Below, piece after piece: positions 1,929-42,090 of a stretch of DNA of 57,820 nt (the first letter of the stretch is position 1; each line of letters starts with the position of its first letter). The DNA comes from Atribacterota bacterium. Lineage in GTDB: Bacteria > Atribacterota > Phoenicimicrobiia > Phoenicimicrobiales > Phoenicimicrobiaceae. A program made the translations under genes and the position numbers. The notes under the pieces were generated by a model, which was given only the letters and a program-made list of their open reading frames with translations, was not told where the DNA came from and made no database searches. The DNA is taken from positions 1-57,820 of the forward strand of contig JAUWHZ010000027.1 in assembly GCA_030605615.1 (NCBI GenBank), read 5' to 3'.

Positions 1929-1980
1929 CAGATTTGTCATTTATGTAAAATCTGGTGCCTGGCACAAAACTTGTCATTCA
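1929..1980. repeat. REP array (GTGCCWGGCAC family) abutting the RAYT stop codon
   Basis: caga-tttgtca-ttta-tgtaaaa-tctg-GTGCC-t-GGCAC-aaaa-cttgtca; near copy at 21858-21892. Confidence 0.8.
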
Positions 1981-2841
1981 TGATAGCAAAGAAATTTTAA
2001 TGTTACTTAACCATAGGCTAAAAAGGGGATCAGATTCTATATTCTTTTGCATTTTATTATTTATATTTAGAACAGACTGTCTGGTGATATGAAAAAGACG
2101 AGCTATTTCGGTTATTTTATATCCTTCTTTTACCAGGACGAAAATCAATAAATTTCTCAAATTTTTATTGGTATTAATATTGCCAAAATATTTATCAGCT
2201 TTTGCTAATATATAATCTATGTTTTTAGGTAAAGTAGCTTGGTTAAAGTTTGTTATTTCATTCAAAAGTATATCGATTTTTTTGTTCTTTTCAAAAGAAT
2301 TTTTTTTGATGAAATTAATAAATTCGTTGGTGCTTATTTCACAAAGCTGGAGAAATTCAGTTATTTTTAGCCAGGGAGGTGCATCTTTTTGCGAGATGAA
2401 ATAGCGAAAGCTCCCCCATTTATATTTTTCAGGCTCAGAAGCATCTACCATTCCTGCTTCAACTGGATTTAGATTAATGTAAGAGGAAATATTAAGTAAA
2501 TACTGAAAATTTAAAATAAGGTAACTTTTATATCTATCTTGGAAGAGATGTCCTTTACGCATATGTTTATAATTAAACCAGTGGGCATAAGAGGAATTTA
2601 AAAACTGCATGGCTTGAGAGAGATTTGCTTCTTCTGTCTTTAAAAGAAGGTGAAAGTGAGTATCCATTAGTACGTAGGAAAATAGGTGAACTTTGTGAAA
2701 GTTAACCATTTTTTGTAGGAGTTGTACAAATTTATTTCTATCTACATCATCAGTAAATATAGCAGCTCCTTCCACACCCTTACCAATTATATGATAAATA
2801 GCATTTTTGTCTTCTATATCTGTTCTATTTCTTCTTACCAT
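1978..2841 (-). mobile_element. REP-associated tyrosine transposase (RAYT, Y1_Tnp HUH) with C-terminal HTH
   Basis: YHIIGKG, MDTHFHLL (HUH), GHLFQDRY, YINLNPVEAG (catalytic Tyr region); HTH YKITEIARLFHITRQSV; palindromes on both sides. Confidence 0.9.
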
Positions 2842-2907
2842 AATGAGATTATTATATCTTTTATAAATAAATAGTTCAAGGGATTGTTTTCAGTATAAAA
2901 GCTGCTT

Positions 2908-2948
2908 AAAAGTTAACCAAAGGTGCCTGGCACCTTTGGTTAACTTTT
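2908..2948. repeat. REP palindrome, 20-bp arms
   Basis: aaaagttaaccaaaggtgcc-t-ggcacctttggttaactttt. Confidence 0.95.
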
Positions 2949-3042
2949 TTAAATAAAGTTTTGTTGGAGTTTTAAAAAGAAGTAGTGTATAATTGATTTT
3001 AGTTATTTTTACTACAAAAGTAAGTTAAAGTTTTTTTGATGA

Positions 3043-3159
3043 ATAAAAAAGGATCGAGAAAAGATTGTTCTAGAGATAAAATATAAAGGACTTCGTCTTG
3101 ATGATGAGACTTTAAGAATGATTTACCATGATAATATAGAGAGAATTTTTGTAAAATAA
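3043..3159 (+). pseudogene. Possible gene remnant resembling an amidohydrolase-family C-terminus
   Basis: Frame …KYKGLRLDDETLRMIYHDNIERIFVK* directly after an in-frame TGA, no plausible N-terminal start. Confidence 0.4.
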
Positions 3160-3291
3160 AATAAAATAAATAAGAACCAAAGGTGTTCCATACTATTATT
3201 TATAGCAAGATATCCATTAAATGATACTAAAAGCAAATCTTAATTGCCTTAGCGAATCGAAAAATATTTGAAGATAGGAATGTATTAAGAG

Positions 3292-5139
3292 ATGAAGAAA
3301 TTTTTTGTATTATTATTTGGACTAATTATTTTAATATTAATAGGGGGATGCCAAAATTTGGGAGATTTATTTCCTTTTTTAAATAGAGCACCCATTATAA
3401 CTTCTGAACCTGTTACCACTGCTCTCGAGGGCAATCTGTATTCATATCAGGTAGAGGTTAGTGATCCTGATGGAGATACTCTGACCTATTCTTTTACTCT
3501 CAAGCCAGAGGGAATGAACATTAATGATAAAAATGGTTTAATAACCTGGACGCCAACCAATGATCAGGTAGGAATGCACCAGGTAATTATAGAAATTTCT
3601 GATGGAAAACATAGTGTCCAACAGAACTTTGAAATTGAAGTTGTAAACGTGAATAATCCTCCCCAAATACTTTCTTATTTCCCTGCTAATCTCAGTTTTG
3701 AAATTAATGAAGGAGATTCGGTAAAATTTGAAGTTCAAGCCCACGATATTGACTTAAACACGACTTTAAATTATCAATGGTTTTTAAATGGAAATGAAGT
3801 ATTAAAATCCACTGGTTCAGGAAATGATTCAAAAAGTAGCTGGATTTACTCTTTTGGATATGGAGATTATGGGTTAAAAACAGTAAAGGTTCTAATAAGT
3901 GATGGAGAATTTACAGATAGTGTACAATGGAAAATAAATGTAAAAGATATAACTTCTCCCAATAAACCTACCTTAAGTGATATAATTTCACCTACCAACG
4001 TTTCTTCTCAGATTTTATCAGGGACTAAAGAAACTAATACTTCCATTTGGATTAATGGGAAAGAAGCGGTGCCAATAAATTCCGAGACTACTTGGTCATG
4101 TATTTTTGATTTGTCTGAAGGAAATAATAATATCTCAATTACTTCTCGCGATGCAGCTGGTAACGAAAGCTCCGCAGTAATCGCGACAATCGAATACGAT
4201 CCCAATATCTATGTAGATGCAGGAAATGCCACTGGAACAGAAGATGGGACCAAAACCCACCCCTTTCACACTATAGCCGAGGGGATAGATGCAGTTGCCC
4301 CTGGAAAATCGGTTATAGTAAGTGCAGGGACTTATAATGAACAGCTGGTAGTAAATAAAGGGATTGCCCTCCAGGGTGCTGGAAAGGAATCTGCTTTCAT
4401 AATCGGACTAGGATATGCTGGAAATTTAATTACTATTACAGCTGATAATGTCATAATATCCGGATTTAATATTGATGGCGAATCAGATACAGATATGGGA
4501 ATCTATAGTGACTCATCTTCTTCTATTGAAATATCAGAAAATTTAATCCAAAACCACCAGGATAGTGGAATTTTCTATCAAAGAATAAGCGATGATTATC
4601 CTTCAGGGATATATGTTTATAATAATGAGATATGTCTTAATTCTCAGAACGGAATAAAAGTTATGGAAGCAGGTTCTGGCATTATCGAGAGTAATATCAT
4701 TAGGAAAAATGATTGTGGAATTAAGGTTTCCAATAATGCATCTCTTGAGGTAAAAAAGAATGATATATATGATAATTATGATTCTGGCATTTTTTGTCGG
4801 GAAAGTTCTTCATTATTAATTTGGGAAAATGAGATCAGGACTAATAGTTATGGGATAAGGGTTGGTGAAAAATATAGCGATACTACTAATCCGGATATAG
4901 GAGGAGGAGCTAAAGGTGGAATCGGAAAGAATAATATCACAGGTAACACTTCCAACGGGATTATCAATATGACCGATCACAATATTTTCGCCAAATATAA
5001 CTGGTGGGGAGATGCCAATGGGCCTAAATATCCTGGAAATAATTCAAGTAGTGGCGATTGGGCTTATTGGGATGATGTTAATAATAAAACTGGTGATATT
5101 ATATTTGAAGATTATTTAATTGAACCCCAAACCTTTTAG
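3292..5139 (+). CDS. Lipoprotein with Ig-like repeats and right-handed beta-helix (NosD/pectin-lyase-like) domain
   Basis: Lipobox-like LIGGC; NRAPIITS…DPDGDTLTY Ig motif; YVDA…GTKTHPFHTI; Asn/Gly-Ile ladders; NWWG. Confidence 0.8.
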   Translation: MKKFFVLLFGLIILILIGGCQNLGDLFPFLNRAPIITSEPVTTALEGNLYSYQVEVSDPDGDTLTYSFTLKPEGMNINDKNGLITWTPTNDQVGMHQVIIEISDGKHSVQQNFEIEVVNVNNPPQILSYFPANLSFEINEGDSVKFEVQAHDIDLNTTLNYQWFLNGNEVLKSTGSGNDSKSSWIYSFGYGDYGLKTVKVLISDGEFTDSVQWKINVKDITSPNKPTLSDIISPTNVSSQILSGTKETNTSIWINGKEAVPINSETTWSCIFDLSEGNNNISITSRDAAGNESSAVIATIEYDPNIYVDAGNATGTEDGTKTHPFHTIAEGIDAVAPGKSVIVSAGTYNEQLVVNKGIALQGAGKESAFIIGLGYAGNLITITADNVIISGFNIDGESDTDMGIYSDSSSSIEISENLIQNHQDSGIFYQRISDDYPSGIYVYNNEICLNSQNGIKVMEAGSGIIESNIIRKNDCGIKVSNNASLEVKKNDIYDNYDSGIFCRESSSLLIWENEIRTNSYGIRVGEKYSDTTNPDIGGGAKGGIGKNNITGNTSNGIINMTDHNIFAKYNWWGDANGPKYPGNNSSSGDWAYWDDVNNKTGDIIFEDYLIEPQTF

Positions 5140-5154
5140 ATGAACGTTTCCAGG

Positions 5155-5244
5155 GGGTCCTGGTACCAACTTTACCAAAAGTTAACCAAAGGTGCCAGGC
5201 ACCTTTGGTTAACTTTTCTGGCACAAAAGTTTCCCTTTTTGTGC
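5155..5244. repeat. Multi-unit REP array with perfect palindrome 5177-5217
   Basis: gggtcctGGTACcaactttacc + aaaagttaaccaaaggtgcc-a-ggcacctttggttaactttt + ctGGCACaaaagtttccctttt. Confidence 0.9.
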
Positions 5245-5320
5245 TTGTTTGAAAGATAGTTGTATGGTATGTTATAAAATATAAAAAGATAGACCAAAAC
5301 ATGAGGAAGGAAGAGGAATT

Positions 5321-6418
5321 ATGGACGAGATAAGAAAAAATAAAAATAATATATTAGATGGAGATTTTTCTGGGCTGGATAAAGCTAATATGATAGAGTT
5401 GTTAGAGGAATTTCCTCAGAAGATGAGAGATGCTTTGCGTTTAGGAGAAGAATTTTCTATTCCTACCGCCTTTTCACCTGCTTCTGCCCAGAATTTTAAA
5501 AATATTGTGGTATTGGGAATGGGAGGCTCAGCTATCGGTGGTGATTTATTATCCAATTATTTAGCCGATGAATTATCCATCCCAATAGTAGTTATTCGTG
5601 GTTATGATATTCCAAAATTTGTAAATGAAAATTCTTTGGTGTTTGCAGTCAGTTATTCTGGAAACACTGAAGAGACTCTCTCTGCCTTAAAGAAATGCTT
5701 AGAGGCCAGAGCCAAAGTTGTTGCCTTAACTTCAGGTGGTAAATTTGAAGTTCTTTCCAAAGAAAATAACTTTCCCGTTATTAAAGTTCCAGCGGGGATT
5801 CAGCCTCGAGCCGCTATTTCTTATTTATTCTTTCCTATACTAAAAGTATTAGAAAGGCTGGACTTGATAAAAGAAAGAAATAAAGAAATAGAAGAAACAC
5901 TAAACATTATACAGGAACTTTCCAGAGAATATAGCAGCAAATCTCCGCTTAAAAACAATTTAGCCAAAAAGGTGGCTTTGAGCTTATACCAGCATCTACC
6001 TCTAGTTTGTGGCTCTGAAGGATTATTAGAGGCAGTGGCTATGCGTTGGAAGACCCAGATAAACGAAAATAGTAAATGGCCCTGTTTCTGGAATGTATTT
6101 TCTGAGCTGAATCATAATGAAATAGTCGGTTATGAAATAGAAAATAACATAAATCGACAGGTTAAAATTATTTATCTGGAAGATAAAGAGGGCTCTTTGC
6201 GGATAGAACAAAGGCGAGAGATTACCCGAAAGATTATCGAAGACAAAGTAGCAGAGTTCATAGTTTGTCCCACTAAAGGCAAGGGGAAATTGGCCTGCAT
6301 GTTCTCACTAATCTATTTAGGTGATTTGGTAAGCTATTATTTGGCAATCTTAAATCGGGTTGACCCTTCGCCAGTAGCGTGTATAGAAGATTTAAAAAAA
6401 GAATTAGCCAAACACTGA
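5321..6418 (+). CDS. Bifunctional phosphoglucose/phosphomannose isomerase (SIS)
   Basis: GMGGSAIGG, SYSGNTEET, QPRAA, RWKTQINENSK, ELNHNEI, VDPSPV. Confidence 0.92.
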   Translation: MDEIRKNKNNILDGDFSGLDKANMIELLEEFPQKMRDALRLGEEFSIPTAFSPASAQNFKNIVVLGMGGSAIGGDLLSNYLADELSIPIVVIRGYDIPKFVNENSLVFAVSYSGNTEETLSALKKCLEARAKVVALTSGGKFEVLSKENNFPVIKVPAGIQPRAAISYLFFPILKVLERLDLIKERNKEIEETLNIIQELSREYSSKSPLKNNLAKKVALSLYQHLPLVCGSEGLLEAVAMRWKTQINENSKWPCFWNVFSELNHNEIVGYEIENNINRQVKIIYLEDKEGSLRIEQRREITRKIIEDKVAEFIVCPTKGKGKLACMFSLIYLGDLVSYYLAILNRVDPSPVACIEDLKKELAKH

Positions 6419-6452
6419 GGTAACATTTTGTGCCTGGCACAAAATGTTACCT
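6418..6452. repeat. REP palindrome, variant arms (17 bp)
   Basis: aggtaacattttgtgcc-t-ggcacaaaatgttacct. Confidence 0.9.
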
Positions 6453-6490
6453 TGTTACTCGATTTATTTAAAAAAGAGGAGATTGTTTAT

Positions 6491-7414
6491 TTGAAATATA
6501 TAGAAGTTGGTATCATTGCCTTTGTAGTTTCCTATATCTTAACCCCCTATCTGGCCCGGGTAGGGAAAAAACAGAATATGGTGGATTTACCTGATCATCG
6601 TAAAGTACACGAAGAAGCTATTCCCAATTTAGGGGGAATAGTTATCTTTTTCGGCTTTTTATTGAGTTTGTTGTTTATTGTGCAGATAGAAGGACAGGTT
6701 AAAACCCTTATGGTGGGTGGGGTAATTATTTTGCTATTAGGCATAGTAGATGATATTGCTGACCTTTCTCCCAAACATAAATTTATAATTCAGATGATAC
6801 CAGCATTAATAGTGATTATATATAATAGTGATTTAATAAATAGTTTTATAGTTAATCAATTAAAAAGTCTTGATTTATTAGGTTATCTTCTTTATCCTGT
6901 CTTAATCTTCTGGATAGTAGGGGTCACAAATTCTATAAACCTAATAGATGGTTTAGATGGACTAGCCTGTGGAGTTTCAATTATCACCTTAATAACTTTT
7001 TTTGTTTTGGGTTTGAATCAAAATTTTGAAACCCTTAATCTTATATCTATCGCTCTGGCAGGAAGTATGTTAGCTTTTTTAAAATTTAACTTTTATCCGT
7101 CAAAGATTTTTTTAGGAGATTCAGGCAGCACTTTTAGCGGTTTTATGCTGGCCTCCATAGGGGCTTTGTGGGTGTTAAAAAGTGAAAATGTATTTTTTAT
7201 TTTTATTCCTATTATTATTCTAGCTTTACCTATTTTTGATACCCTGTTTGCTATTTTGAGGAGATACAGGGGCCATCATCCTATTTTTCAGGCTGATAAG
7301 GGCCATCTTCATCATCGTTTTTTGGCTCGAGGATTATCTCATAAAAATGCCGTACTCCTCTTGTGGGGAATAAGCGCCACCTGTAGCATAATCGCCCTTA
7401 TTTTAGCTCTGTAG
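6491..7414 (+). CDS. Undecaprenyl-phosphate GlcNAc-1-phosphate transferase (WecA/TagO, Glycos_transf_4)
   Basis: LGIVDD, NSINLIDGLDGL, FLGDSG, DKGHLHHR; start moved to TTG 6491 after GAGGAG because 6428 lies in the REP. Confidence 0.9.
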   Translation: MKYIEVGIIAFVVSYILTPYLARVGKKQNMVDLPDHRKVHEEAIPNLGGIVIFFGFLLSLLFIVQIEGQVKTLMVGGVIILLLGIVDDIADLSPKHKFIIQMIPALIVIIYNSDLINSFIVNQLKSLDLLGYLLYPVLIFWIVGVTNSINLIDGLDGLACGVSIITLITFFVLGLNQNFETLNLISIALAGSMLAFLKFNFYPSKIFLGDSGSTFSGFMLASIGALWVLKSENVFFIFIPIIILALPIFDTLFAILRRYRGHHPIFQADKGHLHHRFLARGLSHKNAVLLLWGISATCSIIALILAL

Positions 7415-7417
7415 TGT

Positions 7418-7460
7418 AAAAAGTTAACCAAAGGTGCCTGGCACCTTTGGTTAACTTTTT
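7418..7460. repeat. REP palindrome, 21-bp arms
   Basis: aaaaagttaaccaaaggtgcc-t-ggcacctttggttaacttttt. Confidence 0.95.
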
Positions 7461-7481
7461 GTAGCAGAAAGGAAAAGAAAC

Positions 7482-8525
7482 ATGAAATTAAAAAAGAGAA
7501 AAGAGCAAGTAAGTGAAAATGAAAAGACTACCGTTCTGGTTACCGGTGGGGCAGGCTTTATCGGTTCACATATTGTGGATTTATTTATCGAAAATAATTA
7601 TAGGGTGGTAGTAGTTGATGACCTCTCTTCAGGACGAGAAGAAAATTTAAATGAAGATGCCCAATTTTATAAATTAAACATTACTGATAAAAAAGGATTA
7701 GAAGAAGTATTTCAGCAAGAAAGACCTGATTATATCAGTCACCAGGCAGCTCAGATCAGTGTATCTCTCTCGGTAAGAGACCCTTTATTTGATGCCCAGA
7801 CCAATATTTTAGGTTCCTTAAATTTACTACAGTGCTGTGTAAATTATCAGGTTAAAGGAATAGTGTTTGCCTCCAGCGGAGGGACCATTTATGGAGAACC
7901 AGAGCATTTTCCGGTAAGCGAAGCCCATCCCCTCCAACCTTTATCTCCTTATGGAATTAGCAAAGTTACAGTAGAACATTATCTTGATTTTTATAGGAAA
8001 AATTATAATTTCCCTTATGTATCTTTGAGGTATGGAAATGTTTATGGGCCTCGTCAAGACCCTTATGGTGAGGCAGGAGTTATTGCCATATTTATAGAGA
8101 AGATGTTAAAAGGGGAGATCCCCACCATAAATGGTGACGGAGAATATATAAGAGATTATGTTTATGTAGGAGATGTGGCCCGGGCTAATTTACTCGCTAT
8201 CGAAAATATGTTAAAATTAGCTAAAGTTGTTCAGAAAGAAAAAATTGTAGAAGAAACTACGTATAATATTTATAATATTGATAACAATAGTTTTAATTTG
8301 GGCACCGGGGTCGGGGCCTCAGTAAATGAACTTTTTCATCTTTTAAGGGAGATTATAAAATTCCCCCATCCAGCAAATTATGGACCTCCTCGGGCAGGGG
8401 ATTTAAGAAAGAATATCCTGGATTGTCAACTGATCAAAAATGTTTGGGGATGGCAACCAGAAGTTAATTTATCTGAAGGGTTAAAAAAGACAGTCCATTG
8501 GTTTAAAAGGCAGCCCCTTCCTTAA
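7482..8525 (+). CDS. NAD-dependent epimerase (UDP-glucose 4-epimerase-like)
   Basis: VTGGAGFIG, PYGISK (YxxxK), LRYGNVYGPRQDP. Confidence 0.9.
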   Translation: MKLKKRKEQVSENEKTTVLVTGGAGFIGSHIVDLFIENNYRVVVVDDLSSGREENLNEDAQFYKLNITDKKGLEEVFQQERPDYISHQAAQISVSLSVRDPLFDAQTNILGSLNLLQCCVNYQVKGIVFASSGGTIYGEPEHFPVSEAHPLQPLSPYGISKVTVEHYLDFYRKNYNFPYVSLRYGNVYGPRQDPYGEAGVIAIFIEKMLKGEIPTINGDGEYIRDYVYVGDVARANLLAIENMLKLAKVVQKEKIVEETTYNIYNIDNNSFNLGTGVGASVNELFHLLREIIKFPHPANYGPPRAGDLRKNILDCQLIKNVWGWQPEVNLSEGLKKTVHWFKRQPLP

Positions 8526-8633
8526 ATAATTTAAAAAAATGGCTTACAAAAAGAGGATTTTTTTATTTTTTGTAGAATTAAAATATTAACAAGATATAAA
8601 AATATAAATTAAGGAATATTAAGGAATAAATAT

Positions 8634-10241
8634 ATGTCTGAATTTGGAATAACATACAAGATTATAGGTATTGTTGTAGCAAGTGCACTGATGATTATCC
8701 TGGGGAGAGTCGATAAAAAGAAAAAACTTTCTACAGGAAATAAGCTTATATTCCAGATCCTGATTTCTCTAATTGTAATATATTCCGGGGTTAAAATAGA
8801 ATTTTTAAGAGATCCTTCCTCATCCGGCGGGTATCTTTATCTTAACTTTTTAACCATACCTCTGACCATAATCTGGTTAATGAGCATTACTAACTCTATA
8901 GGTCAGGTGGATGAATGGGGAGAGATCACCCCTTATATTATTTTCATTGCTTCTTTAACTTTTTTAGCCGTTTCCCTAATTCAAAGACAAGGGTTAATTT
9001 TGGCAGAAGTTTTGTCTTTAATTTTGGCAGCAGTATCGTTTATTTTTATCAGATACCTGCCACGGAGAAAATTCTCTTCTTATTATATGTCTTTTGGATT
9101 TATATTAGCCATTATTGCTATTGTTGGTGTATTAAAAAGCACAGCTGCTTTAACTCTATTAATACCCCTTTTAATATTGGGGGTTCCACTTATTGATTTT
9201 TCTTATTCTATTGTGGCGGCTTATGCCCGCCCAGAAGTTCAAGGTCAGGGAGATTATCCCTCATTTTCAGAGAGTAGATTGCGACAAAAGTTACAATCTT
9301 ATGGCTTTTCTCCCAGAGGGGCTAATTTAACTATTATCGGTTCATCTCTATATTTAAGTTTTTCTGCCCTGATAATTTCAATAAACCAAAATCTCTATCT
9401 TTTAGTAGTGTTGGTAGTTTTTGGTGGATTAGTTTTTGAATTATTGACAAAACAGGTTAAATTAGGAGAAATAATCATAGGGGAGGATACTTCTAATCAT
9501 CGAGTTAGACTTTTTCAGGTAGGTATTGACCAGATAGATAATCAAAAGACTATTCAAAAGATCGAAGAATTTGTGATTTCTAAAAAACCTCACCTGGTGG
9601 TTACACCAGATACACTGGCTATATTGCGAGCAAGGAGAGATCCGGAATATCATGCTATATTAAAATCTGCTGATTTGATTACCCCTGATGGAGCAGGTAT
9701 TTTATGGGCCACCACGACCCTAAATTATCCTTTGACTGAAAGGGTAACTGGAATCGATATAATAAACAATATATGCCAATTAGCAATAAAGAAAGGGTAT
9801 TCTCTATATTTATTAGGTGCTTCTCCCGGCGTAGCAGAAGAAGCATCCCTAAACTTAACCAGACATTATCCCGGATTAAAGATTGTGGGAAGTCATCATG
9901 GTTATTTTGCTCCCCAAGGAGAAGTAGAGATTGTTAGAGAGATTAAAGAGAAGAGACCAGATATATTATTGGTAGGAATGGGTATGCCCAAACAAGAGAA
10001 ATGGATTGCTAAAAATTTAAACAAATTAAATGTTTCAGTATGTATGGGGGTAGGCGGCAGTTTTGATGTTATTTCCGGGAGGATACCGCGTGCACCACTA
10101 TGGATGCAAAAACATGGAATGGAATGGATTTATAGATCAATTAAGCAACCAAAGAGGGTTTTTTGGGTCTTAGCTCTTTTTTATTTTATCTGGTTGGTAG
10201 TTTTAGGAAAGATAGTATTTACTTTAAAAGAAGCGGATTAA
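8634..10241 (+). CDS. Fusion: degenerate MraY/WecA-like membrane domain + WecB/TagA/CpsF glycosyltransferase
   Basis: C-part PDGAG, ERVTGID, HHGYF, VGMGMPKQEKW, GVGGSFDV, RAP, MEWIYR; N-part polytopic and colinear with WecA. Confidence 0.85.
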   Translation: MSEFGITYKIIGIVVASALMIILGRVDKKKKLSTGNKLIFQILISLIVIYSGVKIEFLRDPSSSGGYLYLNFLTIPLTIIWLMSITNSIGQVDEWGEITPYIIFIASLTFLAVSLIQRQGLILAEVLSLILAAVSFIFIRYLPRRKFSSYYMSFGFILAIIAIVGVLKSTAALTLLIPLLILGVPLIDFSYSIVAAYARPEVQGQGDYPSFSESRLRQKLQSYGFSPRGANLTIIGSSLYLSFSALIISINQNLYLLVVLVVFGGLVFELLTKQVKLGEIIIGEDTSNHRVRLFQVGIDQIDNQKTIQKIEEFVISKKPHLVVTPDTLAILRARRDPEYHAILKSADLITPDGAGILWATTTLNYPLTERVTGIDIINNICQLAIKKGYSLYLLGASPGVAEEASLNLTRHYPGLKIVGSHHGYFAPQGEVEIVREIKEKRPDILLVGMGMPKQEKWIAKNLNKLNVSVCMGVGGSFDVISGRIPRAPLWMQKHGMEWIYRSIKQPKRVFWVLALFYFIWLVVLGKIVFTLKEAD

Positions 10242-10452
10242 TACTAAATAAACAATAATTAGTCAAAAAATAATTATAAAAAGTAAAAGATATTAATTAT
10301 TTGAAAAAGTACTGATAATAATAATTTTAACAGGATTAATCTTTCTGTCCTCTTAATCTTAAATGTTTAAATTGTTACCCCAATTCAATATACCAAAGAC
10401 AGCTGTCACCCTTCATAAAGCACCGTTTTAGTTGATAAATTTTAGGAGATGA

Positions 10453-10932
10453 ATGATGAAAACATACCTGAAAATTGGAATAATTGTAGCTGCCTTATTA
10501 ATTCAACTCACCCTTATTAATTTATTTACCATTCAGGGCCTGAAACCTGATTTAATATTATTAGTGGTGATAGTTTTTTCTCTGTTACAAGGGGCAGAAG
10601 AGGGGACTATTTTTGGATTTGCGTCTGGTCTTTTGCAGGATATTTTTTCCACTGGACTATTAGGTGTAAATGCCCTGGTTAAGACTGTAATAGGTTTTAT
10701 CTGTGGAATTTTAAAAGTAAGGATATTTGCTGAACATATCTTATTTATTATTCCCGTAATAACTTTTATAGTTTCGATTGGCCAGAGCATATTAATATTT
10801 TTGGTACTCCATGCTTTTGGGGTTGAATACAGTTTAGTTTGGAGCTTGAAACAAGTAGCCCTCCCCGAGGCTTTATATAACAGCCTATTATCACCTTTTA
10901 TTTTTCTAGCCGTAAAAAGAATCTTAAAGTAA
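10453..10932 (+). CDS. mreD: Rod shape-determining protein MreD
   Basis: KPDLILL…FGFASGLLQDIFS…GVNAL; upstream of mrdA-rodA. Confidence 0.88.
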   Translation: MMKTYLKIGIIVAALLIQLTLINLFTIQGLKPDLILLVVIVFSLLQGAEEGTIFGFASGLLQDIFSTGLLGVNALVKTVIGFICGILKVRIFAEHILFIIPVITFIVSIGQSILIFLVLHAFGVEYSLVWSLKQVALPEALYNSLLSPFIFLAVKRILK

Positions 10933-10974
10933 AAAATGTAAAAAAAAGTGCCTGGCACAAAATTTTACATTTTT
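10932..10974. repeat. REP palindrome with 4-nt A/A internal bubble
   Basis: aaaaatgtaaaa-aaaa-gtgcc-t-ggcac-aaaa-ttttacattttt. Confidence 0.85.
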
Positions 10975-10998
10975 GAAAAAAGAATTAATAGAGAAAAG

Positions 10999-11874
10999 AT
11001 GATAAAATATAAATATAATAGATGTTTATGGTTGATAATAATAACAGTATTTGTACTTGTGCTTTTAGCCGGGGTTATACCGGTTAGAGCAGAAGTGGGA
11101 GCACCCTTATCAGAAGAGAAGATCGGGGTAGTAGTTACTATCATCCCTTTAGCTGATTTTGTAGAGCAAGTGGGTAAGGATAAGGTGGGAGAAGTTACAG
11201 TTATGGTACCTTCAGGGGCTAACCCTCATACTTATGAGCCGACACCTGTTCAACTCAAAAGGATTAGTCAAGCCCAATTATATGTCAAAGTGGGGTCTGG
11301 AGTAGACTTTGAATTAGCCTGGATGGACAAAATAAGGGTGATAAATAAAGAAATGTTAATTTGTGATTCTTCACAGGGTATTAAGCTGATAAACCAGGAT
11401 CCCCATATATGGCTTTCTCCCCGAAATGCTAAAATTATGGTACAAAATATTTACCAGGCCTTAGCTGAAATTGACCCATATAGCCGAGAGTATTTTGAGA
11501 GAAATGCAATAGAATTTATTAAAAATTTAGACAGGCTGGATGAGGAGATTAGAATTCAATTTATTAGGATGGAGAATAAAACATTTTTATCTTACCACCC
11601 TTCTTGGAATTATTTTGCTAAGGATTATAGCCTTATTCAGTTAGCAATTGAAGATGAAGGTAAGGAGCCGAGCGCTGCCTATTTAGCCCATATAATAGAT
11701 CAAGCGAGAACTTACCATATATCTATTATCTTAGTCTCACCACAATTTAATATTAAAAGTGCCGAGGTGGTAGCTAAAGAAATAGGGATTGAGATTATAG
11801 TAATTGATCCATTATCTCAGGATTATATAAAAAATCTTAAAAAATTAGCCGATGAAATGGTTGGCAATGGGTGA
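10999..11874 (+). CDS. znuA: Zn/Mn ABC transporter substrate-binding protein
   Basis: GANPHTYEP, DPHIWLSP, YHPSWNYF, DPL; start moved out of the REP to ATG 10999. Confidence 0.88.
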   Translation: MIKYKYNRCLWLIIITVFVLVLLAGVIPVRAEVGAPLSEEKIGVVVTIIPLADFVEQVGKDKVGEVTVMVPSGANPHTYEPTPVQLKRISQAQLYVKVGSGVDFELAWMDKIRVINKEMLICDSSQGIKLINQDPHIWLSPRNAKIMVQNIYQALAEIDPYSREYFERNAIEFIKNLDRLDEEIRIQFIRMENKTFLSYHPSWNYFAKDYSLIQLAIEDEGKEPSAAYLAHIIDQARTYHISIILVSPQFNIKSAEVVAKEIGIEIIVIDPLSQDYIKNLKKLADEMVGNG

Positions 11875-11884
11875 TGAATAGATA

Positions 11885-12679
11885 ATGAATCTGGATAATA
11901 AAAATCAAAAGAATAAAAACCAAGAAACTATAATAGAAGTTATAAATTTAAAAAATGTCTGGGTAGATTATGATGATATTGTTGTGTTAGAAGATATAAA
12001 TCTTTCTATATACCAACATGAGTTTTTAGGAATAATAGGACCTAATGGTGGGGGCAAGACCACTTTGCTTAAAGTTGTCCTCGGTTTAGTTCAACCCAGC
12101 AAGGGAGAGGTTAATATTTTAGGGGTAAAGCCAGAAGAGGGCAGGGGATATGTTGGTTATGTTCCACAACACTGTCTTTTTGATCGAGGATTTCCTATAA
12201 GCGTTTGGGAGGTAGTATTGACAGGAAGATTGGGTAAGGGTAAATATTACAAGGCCTATAATAAAGTAGATAAACAAAAGGCACAAGATGTACTTGACCT
12301 TGTCGGAATGTCAGAATTTAAAGGGAAACAGATAGGAAAACTTTCTGAAGGTCAACAAAAACGTGTTTTCATTGCCCGAGCCTTAGTGACTGACCCTAAG
12401 ATTTTGCTGCTTGACGAGCCTTTGGCGAGTATCGATACTCCCTTGCAAACAGAATTTTATGAAATATTAGATAAGTTAAAAGAAAAGATGGCTATTATTT
12501 TGGTTACTCATGACCTTAGTGCAGTCTCGGTTTATGTGGATAAGATCGCCTGTCTAAATCGAAGGCTTTTTTATCATAATTCCAAGGAGATAAGTGTAAA
12601 AGATTTAGAAGAGACTTATCGTTGTCCGGTAGACCTGATCGCCCACGGTATTCCCCACCGGGTATTGAAAAAACATTAA
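11885..12679 (+). CDS. znuC: Zn/Mn ABC transporter ATP-binding protein
   Basis: GPNGGGKTT, GYVPQ, LSEGQQKR, LLLDEP, VTHD. Confidence 0.9.
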   Translation: MNLDNKNQKNKNQETIIEVINLKNVWVDYDDIVVLEDINLSIYQHEFLGIIGPNGGGKTTLLKVVLGLVQPSKGEVNILGVKPEEGRGYVGYVPQHCLFDRGFPISVWEVVLTGRLGKGKYYKAYNKVDKQKAQDVLDLVGMSEFKGKQIGKLSEGQQKRVFIARALVTDPKILLLDEPLASIDTPLQTEFYEILDKLKEKMAIILVTHDLSAVSVYVDKIACLNRRLFYHNSKEISVKDLEETYRCPVDLIAHGIPHRVLKKH

Positions 12680-12765
12680 AAATAATAAAAGATAAAAATC
12701 AATAGAAAAAAGAAAAAAATTAGAAAACTCGAAATTTAAATTAAAATTTAAAGGTAACAAAAAGA

Positions 12766-13593
12766 ATGATGGACATTTTCCAGTATGAGTTTATGAGAAA
12801 TGCCTTATTAGCCATATTATTAGCTAGTATTGCTTGTGGGATTGTGGGTGTTTATGTGGTAGTAAAAAGGATTGTCTTTATAAGTGGAGGGATTGCCCAC
12901 GCCTCTTTTGGAGGTATCGGGTTAGGATATTTTTTAGGTATAAATCCTATTTGGGGTTTAATACCTTTTAGCATTACCTCTGCTCTGGTTATGGGATTGA
13001 TAAGTAAACGTACCAAGATACCAGAGGATACCGCTATTGGAATATTATGGGCACTGGGAGTATCCTTGGGGATTATCTTTATTGGCTTGAGTCCAGGTTA
13101 TGCCCCAGACCTTTTCAGTTATCTTTTTGGTAATATATTAACGGTGACTTCGGCTGATTTAATGGTAATGTTGGTCTTAGATTTAGTGATAATTAAAGTA
13201 GTATTTCTGTTTTATAAAGAATTTTTAGCCCTATCTTTTGATGATGAATTTGCTACAGTAGTGGGAATTCCAACCGAGAAACTGTATCTTCTTCTTTTAT
13301 GTTTGATTGCCCTGACTGTAGTAGTACTGATGAGAGTGGTAGGCATTATTTTAGTAATTGCTTTATTAACCATTCCTGCAGCGATAAGCAAGCAGTTTAC
13401 TGCCAATCTAAAGAAGATGATGTTTATTTCTGTCCTTCTTAGCGCAATCTTTGGTATAATGGGCTTAGTCCTGTCTTATCAGTTTAATTTAGCATCTGGG
13501 GCGACAATAGTGATGGTCTCAGGGATTGGGTTTATGCTTTCCTGGCTTTATAAATATAAATATAAAAAATGTAAAATACAGGTAAATAGATGA
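12766..13593 (+). CDS. znuB: Zn/Mn ABC transporter permease
   Basis: [31 protein letters not shown]. Confidence 0.9.
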
Positions 13594-13601
13594 TTATAGA
13601 T

Positions 13602-13666
13602 GATCCTGGTATCAAACTTTATCAAAAGGGAAACAAAAGTGCCTGGCACTTTTGTTTCCCTTTTGA
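13602..13666. repeat. REP array: degenerate half-unit + perfect palindrome 13622-13666 with variant 22-bp arms
   Basis: gatcctggtatcaaacttta + tcaaaagggaaacaaaagtgcc-t-ggcacttttgtttcccttttga. Confidence 0.9.
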
Positions 13667-13681
13667 AATTGAGGAGAAAAT

Positions 13682-15445
13682 ATGAAGGAATCTTCTACTG
13701 TTCCGGAAGATGTGAAACAGCGACTAAATTGGGTATTAATATTTATTATTATATGCTTTTCTGTTTTAGTTATTAGTCTGTGGTATCTACAAATGATTAA
13801 AGGAGAAGAACTTAGTAAAAGGGCAGTAGAAAATTGCATTCGTTCATTAGTCGAAGATGCTCCTCGGGGGAATATTTATGACCGTTATGGAGAGATGTTA
13901 GTGACCAATCGGCCAGCGGTGATAGTTTCGATAATTCCGGCGGAGGTTGATAATTTAAAAGAATTAAGTAAAAGATTAAGTAAAATAATTGGCCTTTCCG
14001 AGGAAGTTATTGAGCAAAAAGTAAAAAAATATACGGATAATCCCTTTAAGCCAGTAAAGATTTTAGATGATTGTAGGAAAGATAAAATAATTGAAATCGA
14101 AGAGAGAAAAAGTGAACTAAAGGGAGTGGTTTTAGAGGTTCAACCCAGGAGGAATTATCTTTATCACGAATTAGCAGCTCATAGCTTGGGGCATGTGGGA
14201 GAAATAGATAAAGAAGAGTTGCAAAGATTGGGTAACCCCAAATTCCAGGGAGGAGATATAATCGGCAAAACCGGGCTGGAGAAGTATTATGATGACATTT
14301 TAAGAGGAGAAAAAGGAGGAAAAGAAGTTGAGGTCGATGCCTTGGGCCGAGAAATAGCTCTGCTATTACATCGGAAACCTGTACCAGGCAAAGATTTGGT
14401 TCTAACTATTGATAGAGATCTACAACTCTACGGAGAAAATTTACTTTACGGAAAAAGAGGGTCTATTATAGTAAGTAACCCTTATAATGGCGAGATATTA
14501 GCTTTAGTTAATAGACCTTCTTTTAATCCTAATTTATTTGTCAGTGGAATTTCTTATCCTGATTGGGAGAGACTTTCTTCAGACCCCGATTATCCTTTAA
14601 CCAACCGGAGTGTCCAGGGTGTCTATGCCCCTGGTTCAATATTTAAAGTAGTTACTGCCATAGCTGCCTTGGAAGAAGGGGTTACCAATAGAAAGAGAAA
14701 AGTCTATTGTTCCGGTACTTTTGAGTTAGCTGATCAGGTTTTTACTTGCTGGAAGGAATTAGGGCATGGTAGTTTAAGCTTTGTCGATGGCATTGCTCAT
14801 TCCTGCAATATTTATTTTTATACAATAGGAAAAGAACTGGGGATTGAAGGATTTAGTAAATATATGCATAAATTTGGATTGGGAGAGAAAGTGGGTATTG
14901 ATTTACCAGCAGAAGCTCTAGGAACAATCCCTTCCTCTGAATGGAAGCAGAGGGAGCATAAACAGATATGGTTTCCTGGTGATACTATAAATCTTTCCAT
15001 AGGTCAGGGATATCTTTTATTAACTCCTTTACAGATTCACAGTATTATTTGTGCGGTGACTACAGAAGGGGAGATTTACCGATTACATCTGGTAAAAGAG
15101 ATAATTTCTCCTGATGGGGAAACAATTAAAGAAATTACGCCAGAAGTTTACCGGAAAGTAGATATTTCTACCAGCACTTTTCGAACTGTTAAGGAGGGAT
15201 TAAGAGCTACTATATTAAAAGGAACGGGTTGGCGGGCAAATGTTAAGGAACTATCGATAGCTGGTAAAACCGGAACAGCGCAAAACCCCCAAGGAGAAAC
15301 CCATGCTTGGTTTATGGGATTTGCCCCTTATGAGAATCCCGAAGTTTGCATCACCATTTTTATAGAAAATGGGGGAGAAGGGGGAGAAATAGCTGCCCCC
15401 ATAGCCCGCGCCATGCTGGAGAAATATTTTAATACCCAAAAATAA
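13682..15445 (+). CDS. mrdA: Penicillin-binding protein 2
   Basis: APRGNIYDR, PGSIFK (SxxK), SCN (SxN), KTGTAQ. Confidence 0.95.
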   Translation: MKESSTVPEDVKQRLNWVLIFIIICFSVLVISLWYLQMIKGEELSKRAVENCIRSLVEDAPRGNIYDRYGEMLVTNRPAVIVSIIPAEVDNLKELSKRLSKIIGLSEEVIEQKVKKYTDNPFKPVKILDDCRKDKIIEIEERKSELKGVVLEVQPRRNYLYHELAAHSLGHVGEIDKEELQRLGNPKFQGGDIIGKTGLEKYYDDILRGEKGGKEVEVDALGREIALLLHRKPVPGKDLVLTIDRDLQLYGENLLYGKRGSIIVSNPYNGEILALVNRPSFNPNLFVSGISYPDWERLSSDPDYPLTNRSVQGVYAPGSIFKVVTAIAALEEGVTNRKRKVYCSGTFELADQVFTCWKELGHGSLSFVDGIAHSCNIYFYTIGKELGIEGFSKYMHKFGLGEKVGIDLPAEALGTIPSSEWKQREHKQIWFPGDTINLSIGQGYLLLTPLQIHSIICAVTTEGEIYRLHLVKEIISPDGETIKEITPEVYRKVDISTSTFRTVKEGLRATILKGTGWRANVKELSIAGKTGTAQNPQGETHAWFMGFAPYENPEVCITIFIENGGEGGEIAAPIARAMLEKYFNTQK

Positions 15446-15446
15446 A

Positions 15447-15510
15447 AAAAGTTAACCAAAGGTGCCTGGCACCTTTGGTTAACTTTTGGTAAAGTTTGGT
15501 GCCGGGATCC
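15447..15510. repeat. REP palindrome (15447-15487) plus extra half-unit
   Basis: aaaagttaaccaaaggtgcc-t-ggcacctttggttaactttt-ggtaaagtttggtgccgggatcc; near reverse complement of 5155-5217. Confidence 0.95.
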
Positions 15511-15531
15511 CAATTTTTTGGAGGATGGAAG

Positions 15532-18524: not shown

Positions 18525-19288
18525 TCAGAGTAAAATATTGCAAAAATGGTCCTATTAAATACATTTCTCATTTAAATCTGGTCCAGGTTTTTACCCGGGC
18601 TCTAAGAAGAGCAGATATTCCGATGGTCATATCTGGTGGCTTTAATCCTAGATTTAGAATGTCTTTTGGCCCTCCTTTGCCCCTGGGGATTAGTAGCACT
18701 TCTGAATATTTGGATATCAGAGTAAAGAAAAAAATAGAACCCGAAGACCTGATATATAGGTTAAATGTTGTCTTACCTTGTGGGTTAAAGGTATTACAAG
18801 CCAAGATAATTCCTTTACCTTCTGATTCCTTAGTTAAAATAATCAGTTCTGCTTTTTATATAATCACTCTGAAATTAAAGAAAAGTGTAATAAATTTAAG
18901 TAAGGAAGATTTAGATCAAAATAAGGAAAACCTAAATAGAGAGATTTTAAGAGAAGAAAAGGTTGATAGAGAATTAAAAGATCTGAAGAAAGAGATAGAT
19001 AAAAATATTAAGGGATTTTTAAACCAGGAAGAAATTGTAATAGAGAAGCAGACTAAAAAGGGCATAAAAAAGATTAATACAAGGCCTGCAATTATAAATA
19101 TGTCAGTTAAAAAATGTCAGGACCAAATTCTGGAGATTAATTTGTGGTTAAATATTGGACAAGAAGGAAATTTAAACCCTCGATATGTTGTTGAAGCCTG
19201 GTTATCTAATTCTGGTTATATTTTCGATATCAAGCAGATTTGCCGGGATGGATTATATATAAAAAACCAAGAGGTTATCGATTATTAA
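18512..19288 (+). CDS. Radical SAM-associated protein (TIGR03936/DUF2344)
   Basis: KYISHL…RALRRA…SGGFNPR…PLPLG…SEYLD. Confidence 0.88.
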   Translation: MERLIRVKYCKNGPIKYISHLNLVQVFTRALRRADIPMVISGGFNPRFRMSFGPPLPLGISSTSEYLDIRVKKKIEPEDLIYRLNVVLPCGLKVLQAKIIPLPSDSLVKIISSAFYIITLKLKKSVINLSKEDLDQNKENLNREILREEKVDRELKDLKKEIDKNIKGFLNQEEIVIEKQTKKGIKKINTRPAIINMSVKKCQDQILEINLWLNIGQEGNLNPRYVVEAWLSNSGYIFDIKQICRDGLYIKNQEVIDY

Positions 19289-19437
19289 TTTTTAATTAAT
19301 TAAAAGAGATAAAATAATATTTATGCTTAACTGAAGGATAATAAATCTATTAGAGTAGAATTTATTATCCTTTACTATTAGAGTTATTTAGAGTAAGATA
19401 ATGTAAAAGAATTTAAAAGCAAAACAGGAGTTTTTGA

Positions 19438-20955: not shown

Positions 20956-20984
20956 GGTTTACTCAATACGCAATACGAAATTAT

Positions 20985-21013
20985 TTGACAACTAAATAAA
21001 TATATGCTAAATT
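20985..21013 (+). promoter_or_regulatory. Sigma70 promoter for rplU operon
   Basis: TTGACA-17 nt-TAAATT with TG extension. Confidence 0.65.
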
Positions 21014-21029
21014 TTATAAGCATTTGTTT

Positions 21030-21105
21030 ATATCCGCACAGGTTGGGTGCATAAAGTGCGAAAAGTGATTAATCAAATTTAATTACTACCTAATCCTGGC
21101 GAGTT
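21030..21105 (+). ncRNA. Ribosomal protein L21 leader
   Basis: CCGCAC-aggttgggt…acctaatcct-GGCGAG directly upstream of rplU. Confidence 0.75.
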
Positions 21106-21130
21106 TTGAAAACAAGGAGGATTCCAAGAA

Positions 21131-21442
21131 ATGCAAGCAGTTATTGCAACTGGAGGGAAGCAATACCTGGTAAAAGAAGGAGACATTATCAGGGTTGAAA
21201 AAATAGACCAAGAGAAAAGCAAAAAGATAGAATTTGATCAAGTATTAATGGTTAACAAAGAAGGAGAATATATTATTGGTCGACCATTAGTGGAAAAGGC
21301 TAAGGTGACTGGTAAAGTTTTAAATCAAGGAAAGGCTAAGAAGATAATAGTTTTTAAATATAAACCTAAGAAAAAATATCGGAAAAAGACCGGACATAGG
21401 CAACCTTATACTGAAGTTTTAATTGAGAAAATAAAACTTTAA
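21131..21442 (+). CDS. rplU: 50S ribosomal protein L21
   Basis: TGGKQYLV…GHRQPYT. Confidence 0.97.
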
Positions 21443-21817: not shown

Positions 21818-21851
21818 AACCCTGGGTTTTTTATAAAACTCAGGGTTTTTT
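21818..21851 (+). terminator. Intrinsic terminator-like hairpin
   Basis: aaccctgggtttt-ttat-aaaactcagggtt followed by a T run. Confidence 0.7.
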
Positions 21852-21857
21852 AGTATT

Positions 21858-21892
21858 ATGTAAAAAAAAGTGCCTGGCACAAAATTTGTCAT
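21858..21892. repeat. REP (GTGCCWGGCAC family), imperfect
   Basis: atgtaaaa-aaaa-gtgcc-t-ggcac-aaaa-tttgtcat. Confidence 0.85.
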
Positions 21893-41461: not shown

Positions 41462-42072
41462 TTCTTAAAGAAAAAGATACCATCAAACGTTTAGGAATAA
41501 TGGGAGGGGTATTTGACCCCGTACATTATGGGCATTTATTTACGGCTGAAGAAGCAAGGATTAAATTTAAATTAGATAAAGTAATATTTGTACCCTGCCG
41601 TCAGCCGACCCATAAACGAGAGAATAACATTTCTGATCCAGAACATCGGTATTTGATGACTATTTTAGCTACTGGCAATAACCCATTTTTTGAAGTATCT
41701 AAAATGGAACTTCGTCGACCAGGCCCTTCTTATTCTATCGATACAGTGAAAGAATTTATAAAGAAATATAATCATGGGATAAAAATATTTTTTATTACCG
41801 GAGCTGATGCCTTCTTAGAGATAGATTCTTGGTATAAAAGCGAGGAATTAATTAAGCTTTGTCGATTTGTAGCAGCTACTCGTCCGGGATATGATTTAAA
41901 TAAATTAGATCAAAAATTTAAAAAAGTTATCAAAATTATGGAGATTCCCGCCCTGGCTATATCTTCTACTGATATTAGAAAAAGGGTGAGAGAGAGAAAG
42001 GGCATCAAATATCTGGTTCCCTATAAAGTGGAAGAATATATCTACAAAAATGGATTATATCGTAAAATGTAA
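41461..42072 (+). CDS. nadD: Nicotinate-nucleotide adenylyltransferase (start uncertain; first ATG is 41500)
   Basis: KRLGIMGGVFDPVHYGHL, SYSIDT, ITGAD, ISSTDIR. Confidence 0.92.
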   Translation: MLKEKDTIKRLGIMGGVFDPVHYGHLFTAEEARIKFKLDKVIFVPCRQPTHKRENNISDPEHRYLMTILATGNNPFFEVSKMELRRPGPSYSIDTVKEFIKKYNHGIKIFFITGADAFLEIDSWYKSEELIKLCRFVAATRPGYDLNKLDQKFKKVIKIMEIPALAISSTDIRKRVRERKGIKYLVPYKVEEYIYKNGLYRKM

Positions 42073-42090
42073 CATTTTGTGCCTGGGTCC
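42064..42090. repeat. REP half-site (GTGCC family) overlapping the nadD stop
   Basis: aaaa-tgtaaca-tttt-gtgcc-t-gggtcc. Confidence 0.7.

Follow-up and report, generated by a model that had tools for sequence, protein, structure and literature searches.

Palindromic repeats around a RAYT-type gene in a family of Atribacterota: a conserved apex, a covarying mid-stem and probable overwriting in place

We describe a family of perfect palindromes with variable arms in a 57,820-nucleotide (nt) stretch of DNA from an Atribacterota bacterium (contig JAUWHZ010000027.1 of assembly GCA_030605615.1, positions 1 to 57,820; hereafter the window), together with a gene for a REP-associated tyrosine transposase (RAYT) that lies between two of them. 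These palindromes are most probably the repetitive extragenic palindromes (REPs) of a vertically inherited REP-RAYT system, a REPtron or TIRtron, in one Atribacterota family, in which the hairpin would be read by its shape and apex and copies would be overwritten in place. The proposal builds on features that we observe directly: the anatomy of the elements, their position on both flanks of the RAYT, the joint occurrence and loss of REPs and RAYT, covariation of the arms, genome-specific alleles at orthologous sites, chimeric copies and clustering near the RAYT. The window is contig C6 of G000, a 27-contig, 624-kb metagenome bin that is 66% complete.

A palindrome family with one apex

The sequence GTGCCWGGCAC occurs nine times in the window (1955, 2923, 5192, 6430, 7434, 10948, 13639, 15462 and 21870), while 100 dinucleotide-preserving shuffles of the window gave not a single match, and 17 times in the whole 624-kb genome. 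A motif-blind scan of this genome for perfect palindromes with arms of at least 11 nt returned 39, of which 12 belong to the GTGCCWGGCAC family and six of those lie in the window, at 2908..2948, 5177..5217, 6418..6452, 7418..7460, 13622..13666 and 15447..15487. These six are 35–45 nt long, with arms of 17–22 nt around a 1-nt centre, and their starts are exactly those given in an earlier note on this DNA, made from the sequence alone. That note divided each half-unit into a W4 foot, a 7-mer, a 4-mer and GTGCC, and its alleles hold as listed. Four copies carry GTTAACC, namely 2908..2948 (with the 4-mer AAAG), 5177..5217 (centre A), 7418..7460 and 15447..15487 (between the PBP2 and RodA genes). 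GGGAAAC-AAAA forms the 22-nt arms at 13622..13666, and GGTAACA-TTTT those at 6418..6452, a copy that overlaps the phosphoglucose isomerase stop codon and of which the site is empty in 9/9 other genomes compared. At 10932..10974 the arms are TGTAAAA and the 4-mer is AAAA on both sides, a bubble (as the note had said) that makes a 4x4 internal loop of A's. The W4 foot proved not to be universal, with CTGA at 6418, TTTA at 1955 and ATTA at 21870.

Two further family members with non-matching arms had been overlooked. One, at 1943..1977, abuts the RAYT stop codon and pairs a left arm TGTAAAA-TCTG with a right arm AAAA-CTTGTCA; the other, at 21858..21892, has TGTAAAA and TGACAAA arms. Folded as single-stranded DNA, the perfect copies form 16–21 pairs closed by a 3-nt loop (-16.7 to -23.6 kcal/mol, z -8.2 to -9.4); the imperfect copies, at 1955 and 21870, are no more stable when folded than shuffled sequences.

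Half-units stand beside several full units, as the earlier note had observed. One at 5150..5176, ending in GGTACC beside GGGGTCC, is joined tail-to-tail to the REP at 5177; GATCC-TGGTATC-AAAC-TTTA at 13600..13621 abuts the REP at 13622; and GGTAAAG-TTTG-GTGCC followed by GGGATCCC, at 15488..15511, adjoins the REP at 15447. A solitary left half-unit at 42064..42090 reads AAAA-TGTAACA-TTTT-GTGCC (AAAATGTAACATTTTGTGCC) and then TGGGTCC; the TGTAACA half-unit listed for this position is thus present, but it is a left half only and not a palindrome. The half-units at 5150, 13600, 15488 and 42079 share the form of a half-unit in the RAYT leader. An inside-out unit, GGCAC-AAAA-GTTTCCC-TTTT-GTGC, at 5218..5246 folds into a small hairpin, and its position is kept in G014, G015, G017 and G022.

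A RAYT-type gene between two copies

An open reading frame at 1978..2841 on the minus strand, which the earlier note had not picked up, fills exactly the interval between the REP copies at 1955 and 2923. It encodes a RAYT-type Y1/HUH protein of 287 amino acids (PF01797, E 8.1e-11) with an N-terminal catalytic core and a C-terminal helical extension of ~140 amino acids. None of the residues H62, H64, Y121, N125 and P126 varies among 26 aligned relatives, and a profile built from this alignment matches Escherichia coli TnpA_REP (4er8_A, E 8.5e-4), with H59-x-H61 and Y115 aligned to H62-x-H64 and Y121; a phmmer search of the single RAYT sequence against PDB sequences gave no matches at E up to 0.01. 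The AlphaFold model (mean predicted local distance difference test score 84.2) has 4er8_A as its top Foldseek match (E 3.5e-7, TM score 0.73 on the target), followed by IS200/IS605 transposases. Residues 151–287 form a confident all-helical part of the model, and their helix-turn-helix matches are weak (HTH_7 9e-5, HTH_23 3.3e-4, HTH_28 4.4e-3, all under curated cut-offs).

The RAYT leader on the minus strand (2842..2907) contains a promoter, TTGAAC-17-TATAAT at 2879..2851 (scan 10/12), and then a decayed half-unit beside the REP at 2908..2948, the 5' flank of the gene. This leader is conserved in related loci, where the 5' side consists of ~60 nt of flank, the palindrome, TTTT, a half-unit in varying states of decay with GTGCC-GGGATCCC at its end, and the TTGAAC-17-TATAAT promoter; the half-unit at 15488..15511 matches this leader motif. 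A second palindrome directly follows the RAYT stop codon in the related loci. Both flanks carry a palindrome in 18/19 Atribacterota loci, with the same apex and a differing yet complementary 7-mer; in the remaining locus, L018, the 5' copy has collapsed. The suggestion in the earlier note that the elements are REPs with RAYT involvement is thus supported, in the window and in its relatives.

Joint occurrence of REPs and RAYT

Palindromes with a GTGCC-W-GGCAC apex were found at 18/24 related RAYT loci by a motif-blind search. Three Caldisericota relatives with 39–40% protein identity share the apex and have a paired 7-mer and an unpaired 4-mer; the palindrome at one Caldisericales locus, L028, has GGTACC-T-GGTACC as its apex instead. 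GTGCCWGGCAC itself occurs in 22/24 other genomes of the family, at 6–30 copies each, and in 1/16 genomes of the sister family, and an orthologue-level RAYT (defined as E below 1e-50) in 18/25 family genomes. The two genomes free of the motif have, respectively, a paralogue-level match only (G002) and a RAYT pseudogene with 12 stops (G013). In G001, which is 59% complete and holds six copies, the RAYT search gave no match. At least 12 family genomes have the RAYT beside the beta-helix gene that lies at window 3292.

Copies concentrate near the RAYT. In G000, 9/17 lie within 20 kb of it, and the RAYT contigs of four relatives hold 10/18, 11/22, 9/25 and 7/30 of the copies (each binomial P <1e-8); the genomes are akin and share sites, so these five clustering figures are not independent. 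The copy number is low against the REP norm, at 17 in 624 kb and 6–30 per relative, about half of them on the RAYT contig.

The genomic setting also bears on a different reading, in which the palindromes primarily serve the host, as intrinsic terminators acting in both directions or as stabilisers of mRNA 3' ends, under selection for RNA structure at each gene end, with the RAYT link secondary. All window copies are intergenic, 6/7 copies between co-directional genes begin 0–11 nt past the upstream stop codon, A-runs and T-runs at the feet frame the stem (AAAAG...CTTTT), and the sites are conserved across genera, as would be expected of such elements. One window copy (15447–15487, minus strand) also passes a terminator scan. 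Yet no other window copy has the tail that the scan requires, and in the remaining copies the T-run pairs with the A-run. At the L27-Obg site the REP stands behind another hairpin that resembles a terminator. A host function further leaves unexplained why copies sit on both RAYT flanks at 18/19 loci and why genomes with no RAYT or a broken one lack the motif, and selection acting site by site does not account for a 7-mer that is shared genome-wide and switches jointly. We consider this explanation very unlikely as the primary one; the hairpins may have a secondary host role. A search of window positions 1–23000 against Rfam at gathering score gave no matches.

The separate hairpin at the L27-Obg site (21820–21857, CCCTGGG...CTCAGGG and then T6, after the L27 gene) is kept in 10/10 other genomes, in most of which a REP stands just behind it, as the copy at 21858..21892 does in the window.

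Arms that covary and match

Arm variation was examined in 152 copies with intact apex from eight genomes, one further copy being left out; because the search required the apex, its five pairs could not vary. Each of the seven mid-stem pairs occurs as two to four Watson-Crick pair types and is paired in 85–99% of 149 distinct sequences, against 4–70% when the columns are shifted by one. Pairing is looser in the 4-mer, where the apex-adjacent pair is Watson-Crick in 65% and the other three in ~80%. The 7-mer arms match in 114/152 copies, with 55.8 expected when right arms are shuffled within each genome, so that the excess of matched arms for which the earlier note had proposed a test is present. 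Among 10000 permutations, none reached the observed match count in 5/8 genomes; in G010 one did, in G001 165 and in G008 460.

The matched alleles number 21, and 17 of these fall into two networks, nine purine-rich and eight pyrimidine-rich, whose members are linked by single compensated pair steps; the rest are two steps off. Coding DNA of the compared genomes is ~20–25% diverged. The view in the earlier note that point mutation fits the arms poorly is therefore not upheld: a mid-stem that is free to drift while it stays paired accounts for arms that change wholesale yet remain palindromic. GTTTCCC and GGGAAAC are exact reverse complements, and we considered a flip of the 7-mer by inversion; inverting a palindrome cannot yield it, and GGGAAAC belongs to the purine-rich network.

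The 38 unmatched copies comprise 19 chimeras of two known alleles, 12 single mismatches (three of them G.T) and seven others. Recombination of half-units, also raised in the earlier note, thus has its counterpart in 19/152 copies. G008 and G010 contain many doublets with centres 36–37 nt apart, often with one allele in the left arm and another in the right. In 6/6 genomes with known RAYT flanks, the dominant allele is one that flanks the RAYT. In the L27-Obg spacer of G022 (L137), an old decaying copy has a both-sided apex change (GTACC...GGTAC), which is compensated, and an enlarged loop.

Alleles at orthologous sites

Most REP sites, judged by their 80-nt flanks, are orthologous across genera, and at these sites the allele follows the genome. 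We compared four window sites (5192, 7434, 13639 and 15462). G014 has GTTAACC at 4/4 and G012 at 3/3, G015 has GTGTCCT at 4/4, and G010 has TGTAAAC at 3/3; the GTTAACC copy of the window at 5177..5217 accordingly faces other alleles in G015, G017 and G010. In G017, GTTTCCC occupies 2/3 sites and the third holds a chimera with GTTTCCC on the left and GTTAACC on the right; a second chimera, at locus L161 of G012, is its mirror case. The unpaired centre base changes along with the arms, being A at 4/4 of these sites in G015 and T at 4/4 in G014.

G000 and G001 share 98% identity across 14.6 kb of the window, and their comparison shows recent change. The copy at 10948 is the same in both genomes, that at 13639 has one uncompensated apex change in G001, and the half-unit at 15488..15511 is absent or replaced there. 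The copy at 21870 differs at one compensated base pair (A>C in the left arm, T>G in the right) and keeps a 2-nt stem mismatch in both genomes.

Taken together, the allele shared genome-wide, the co-changed centre base, the half-converted copies and the doublets argue for overwriting in place and not for mutation site by site or copying from arm to arm. The last of these was one source of identical arms offered in the earlier note; it could run through quasipalindrome template switching or hairpin-templated repair. Perfect 17–22-nt arms are common, as it would predict, and template switching has been documented to create and maintain hairpin stems (PMC8794818). The compensated change at 21870 between 98%-identical genomes is the one event that it fits. 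Yet a local process cannot put the same alleles at many loci in several species, nor does it account for replacement of an unpaired centre base. The 19 chimeras and 12 single mismatches persist, as do the apex change at 13639 in G001 and the 2-nt mismatch at 21870. Such copying is not needed to explain these data, and we regard it as very unlikely to be the main cause of identical arms, about as unlikely as the host-element reading.

Arm classes and RAYT clades

In the RAYT tree, three clades correspond to three arm classes. Within an unresolved group on short branches, flanks carry GTTAACC, GTTTCCC, GGGAAAC, GTGTCCT/A or GTTTCCA, and 7/19 Atribacterota RAYTs have unlike alleles on their own two flanks. 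The earlier note had set against its own idea a picture of independent arm lineages that do not mix; the first half of that picture agrees with the tree, since broad arm classes do track RAYT clades, but mixed flanks and chimeras exist.

The same comparison speaks to a third explanation, that the palindromes are double-stranded operators for a dimeric protein, such as the helix-turn-helix domain of the RAYT, with the 7-mers as co-evolving half-sites. The C-terminal RAYT domain with its weak helix-turn-helix matches, the genome-specific alleles and the agreement of broad arm classes with RAYT clades would all suit an operator. Against it stand the 7/19 RAYT genes with unlike flank alleles, the presence of several alleles together in every genome and the switching of alleles along RAYT branches that are very short; nor would an operator lead one to expect doublets or a centre base that changes along with the arms. 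We hold this to be the least probable of the alternatives considered.

Smaller points concern individual words within the units. CCWGG in the apex (Dcm/EcoRII-type), GTTAAC in the GTTAACC allele and GGATCC in the leader half-unit are palindromic, and we take them to be classical restriction or methylation sites; reading the elements in this way leaves the RAYT flanking unexplained. A sigma-54 promoter reading of TGGCAC was dropped, as the sequence 5 nt downstream is GTTA and not TTGC, which we assume to be the sigma-54 -12 box.

A model of hairpin reading and overwriting

We propose that the RAYT, an HUH/Y1 nuclease-ligase of single-stranded DNA whose C-terminal domain is helix-turn-helix-like, acts on the hairpin formed by either single strand. 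Binding and cutting of the hairpins, the positions read and the route of overwriting are put forward here from sequence comparison. The part read as sequence would be the GC-rich apex, with five GTGCC/GGCAC pairs closing a C-W-G loop, and probably the A/T feet as well. The 7-bp mid-stem would need only to pair and could drift by compensated single-pair steps, which would make it a neutral barcode. The apex-adjacent 4-mer would be a semi-free module, which pairs in the GTTAACC class and forms an internal loop in copies of the TGTAAAA/TGACAAA class and of Caldisericota. In group-3 REPtrons, according to one biochemical study (Corneloup 2021, PMC8266576), the palindromes are perfect and one loop base is essential, while cleavage suffers from a mismatch in the mid-stem and improved when the three bottom stem positions were made complementary; the biochemistry reported there fits the proposed mode of hairpin reading.

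Copies at fixed intergenic sites would be inherited but also overwritten, centre base included, by the allele that is currently amplifying in the genome. Replacement of one arm at times would leave chimeras. Their likeliest route may be the insertion of a new copy beside an old one, giving a doublet with 36–37-nt spacing, after which the DNA between the two apexes, identical over 11 nt, would be lost; alternatively, short tracts could be converted from one copy to another. More tentatively, and with distinctly lower confidence than we place in the REP-RAYT assignment, we suggest that the mid-stem barcode reports RAYT-dependent overwriting at fixed addresses, of whole units or single arms, mostly within tens of kilobases of the RAYT, that is, replacement or conversion in cis rather than scattering.

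Several points weigh against the interpretation of the palindromes as REPs of an overwriting REP-RAYT system. The window RAYT scores below the NCBIfam cut-off for its best model (55.9 against 80 bits), and the classical 5' GT[AG]G tag described for REPtrons is absent from the GTGCCWGGCAC family, with GTAG at the foot of no copy. Four genomes (G004, G011, G017 and G023, assembled in 270–490 contigs each) carry 9–21 copies with no orthologue-level RAYT found; their RAYT may be unassembled. Matched arms are weakly in excess in G008 (16/30 against 11.4 expected). Dominant alleles are frequent, and chance agreement of about 1 in 5–6 means that the 6/6 agreement with RAYT-flanking alleles proves little. 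Some sites retain one older allele (GTTGCCA) in three species, so overwriting is incomplete. The intact apex was the search key, which under-samples decayed members, and the genomes compared are related metagenome bins, so that counts across them are not independent. Mobility of the REPs, finally, is proposed from sequence comparison, and the public runs consist solely of assembled contigs, broken at the repeats.

Those public data comprise 20 entries that contain parts of the window, all of them assembled contigs from sediment or seep metagenomes and none of them RNA. Their contigs terminate in or beside REPs (for example at 7469, 10943/10962, 13653 and 15466). Inter-REP joints also occur in them, as does a joint in X2 that skips 1978–2959; the sides of these joints measure 20–31 nt, and we take them to be repeat-induced or to come from other organisms.

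RAYT paralogues and other repeats

G000 holds four Y1/HUH genes, for each of which the best NCBIfam model is REP_Tyr_transpos. Against the cut-off of 80 bits, the genes on C3 (82.7) and C12 (102.2) score above and that on C9 (61.8), like the window RAYT, below. The C9 paralogue lies between two perfect GTTTCCC copies (C9 221–263 and 1201–1241). Positions 162–710 of C9 are 86% identical to window 2456–3008, a stretch that starts ~60 nt beyond the 5' REP, takes in the leader and covers the first ~385 nt of the gene. The side that lies upstream of the RAYT in relatives sits on C6 in G000 and the downstream side on C9; with the two sides split in this way, a single ancestral locus seems to have been duplicated or split.

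The window RAYT is 91% identical in protein to the RAYT of another genus (G019:C149:1122–1979, locus L005), where the adjoining DNA is ~74% identical. The arm type of the copy at 1943..1977 also flanks that RAYT, and the leaders of the two genes differ in type. The gap between 91% protein identity and ~74% in the neighbouring DNA suggests exchange or recombination of RAYT alleles between genera.

The RAYT-like gene at C3:4573–5412 (L001) has inverted repeats containing GGGGACGGTTCT and AGAACCGTCCC, close to the GGGGWSAS published for the flanks of TIRYT genes, and four tandem copies of the 13-mer GTCCCTTGTATCA beside it; inverted repeats with GGGGACGG are found only at this paralogue. The fourth gene, at C12:43178–43717 (L004), is a short, canonical RAYT of 171–180 amino acids. 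GC-rich palindromes with TAGG or GTAGG heads, at C12:21403, C15:6418, C22:70889 and C25:1586, make up a second, GTAG-type REP family in G000, and similar elements occur in spacers of G005 and G020. The relatives' spacers orthologous to window 19288–19438 and 20955–21131 (L122, L125, L133, L135 and L137) are full of tandem repeats with a 7–8-nt period, such as GTATCGA and AAGATAAG and words like CCAGTTAG, which are lacking or short in the window.

Comparison with known systems

The dissemination of REPs by domesticated transposases is described as poorly understood in PMC8266576. A neutral, fast-changing stem segment makes donor and recipient copies distinguishable across genomes, and fixed-site replacement, half-unit chimeras and doublets can be counted from sequence alone. 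Were cis overwriting to be true, it would be the first comparative evidence on the spread of repeats by RAYTs, in this case by a long form that is perhaps subclass 2.1 or TIRYT, and the apex conserved across two phyla would be tied to hairpin recognition by the protein. The model also makes predictions that lend themselves to experiments in vitro: activity should be lost when the apex is altered, survive compensated swaps in the mid-stem and suffer from mismatches. For annotation, the family accounts for assembly breaks at these sites, and its intergenic hairpins should not be taken for ordinary terminators alone. Among the best 10 of 36 papers matched to RAYTs and REPs of Atribacterota, we found none that mentions 'Atribacter'; the three texts that contain both 'Atribacter' and 'rayt' concern other matters, judging by title and abstract.

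REPtrons, as described in PMC2817692, PMC3116915 and PMC8266576, resemble the present system in that copies of a short extragenic palindrome stand on both sides of an HUH/Y1 gene and recur elsewhere in the genome, the gene keeps its syntenic place under vertical inheritance, and REPs and RAYT are lost together; the group-3 REPs of PMC8266576 are likewise perfect palindromes. The differences from those descriptions lie in the stem, which here is AT-rich, twice as long (19–21 pairs) and closed by a 3-nt loop, and in the two strands, which fold almost alike, so that strand discrimination could rest only on the centre base. REP copies usually exceed 100 per genome, as stated in PMC2817692, whereas here there are 6–30, about half on the RAYT contig, and the RAYT has 287 amino acids with a long C-terminal domain. 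From GTAG-tagged REPs the GTGCCWGGCAC repeats stand apart as a separate family, which goes with a RAYT lineage of its own, lacks the GTAG tag and combines an AT-rich stem with a conserved apex. The bacterial interspersed mosaic elements of enterobacteria, as outlined in PMC2817692, also join units and half-units by short linkers, comparable to the doublets of relatives with centres 36–37 nt apart; many of the doublets here are direct and not alternating and mix arms of two alleles, and no host-protein binding is known for them.

The closest published class for the window RAYT, likened through published descriptions, is the one named TIRtrons or TIRYT (Di Nocera 2013, PMC3733652), TnpA_REP subclass 2.1 (Quentin 2018, PMC6006769) and RAYT group 1 (Bertels 2017, PMC5581495), to which it may belong. 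The class shares with our system a long RAYT-like protein, a C-terminal extension, helix-turn-helix-like by weak matches in our protein, and flanking repeats without GTAG; the C-terminal domain of subclass 2.1 is given as Bac_DnaA_C, HTH_23 or HTH_28. TIRYT flanks are terminal inverted repeats, mostly with GGGGWSAS, some of them self-complementary and clustered (PMC3733652), whereas here they are complete 41-nt palindromes with a GTGCCWGGCAC apex. The main survey of this class (Quentin 2018) reports no REP-like sequences next to subclass 2.1 genes; in the system described here, a long RAYT-like protein with a helix-turn-helix tail has a clear hairpin partner. The palindromes are most probably a known kind of bacterial repeat, found here in a little-studied phylum and carrying a barcode-like variable stem segment.

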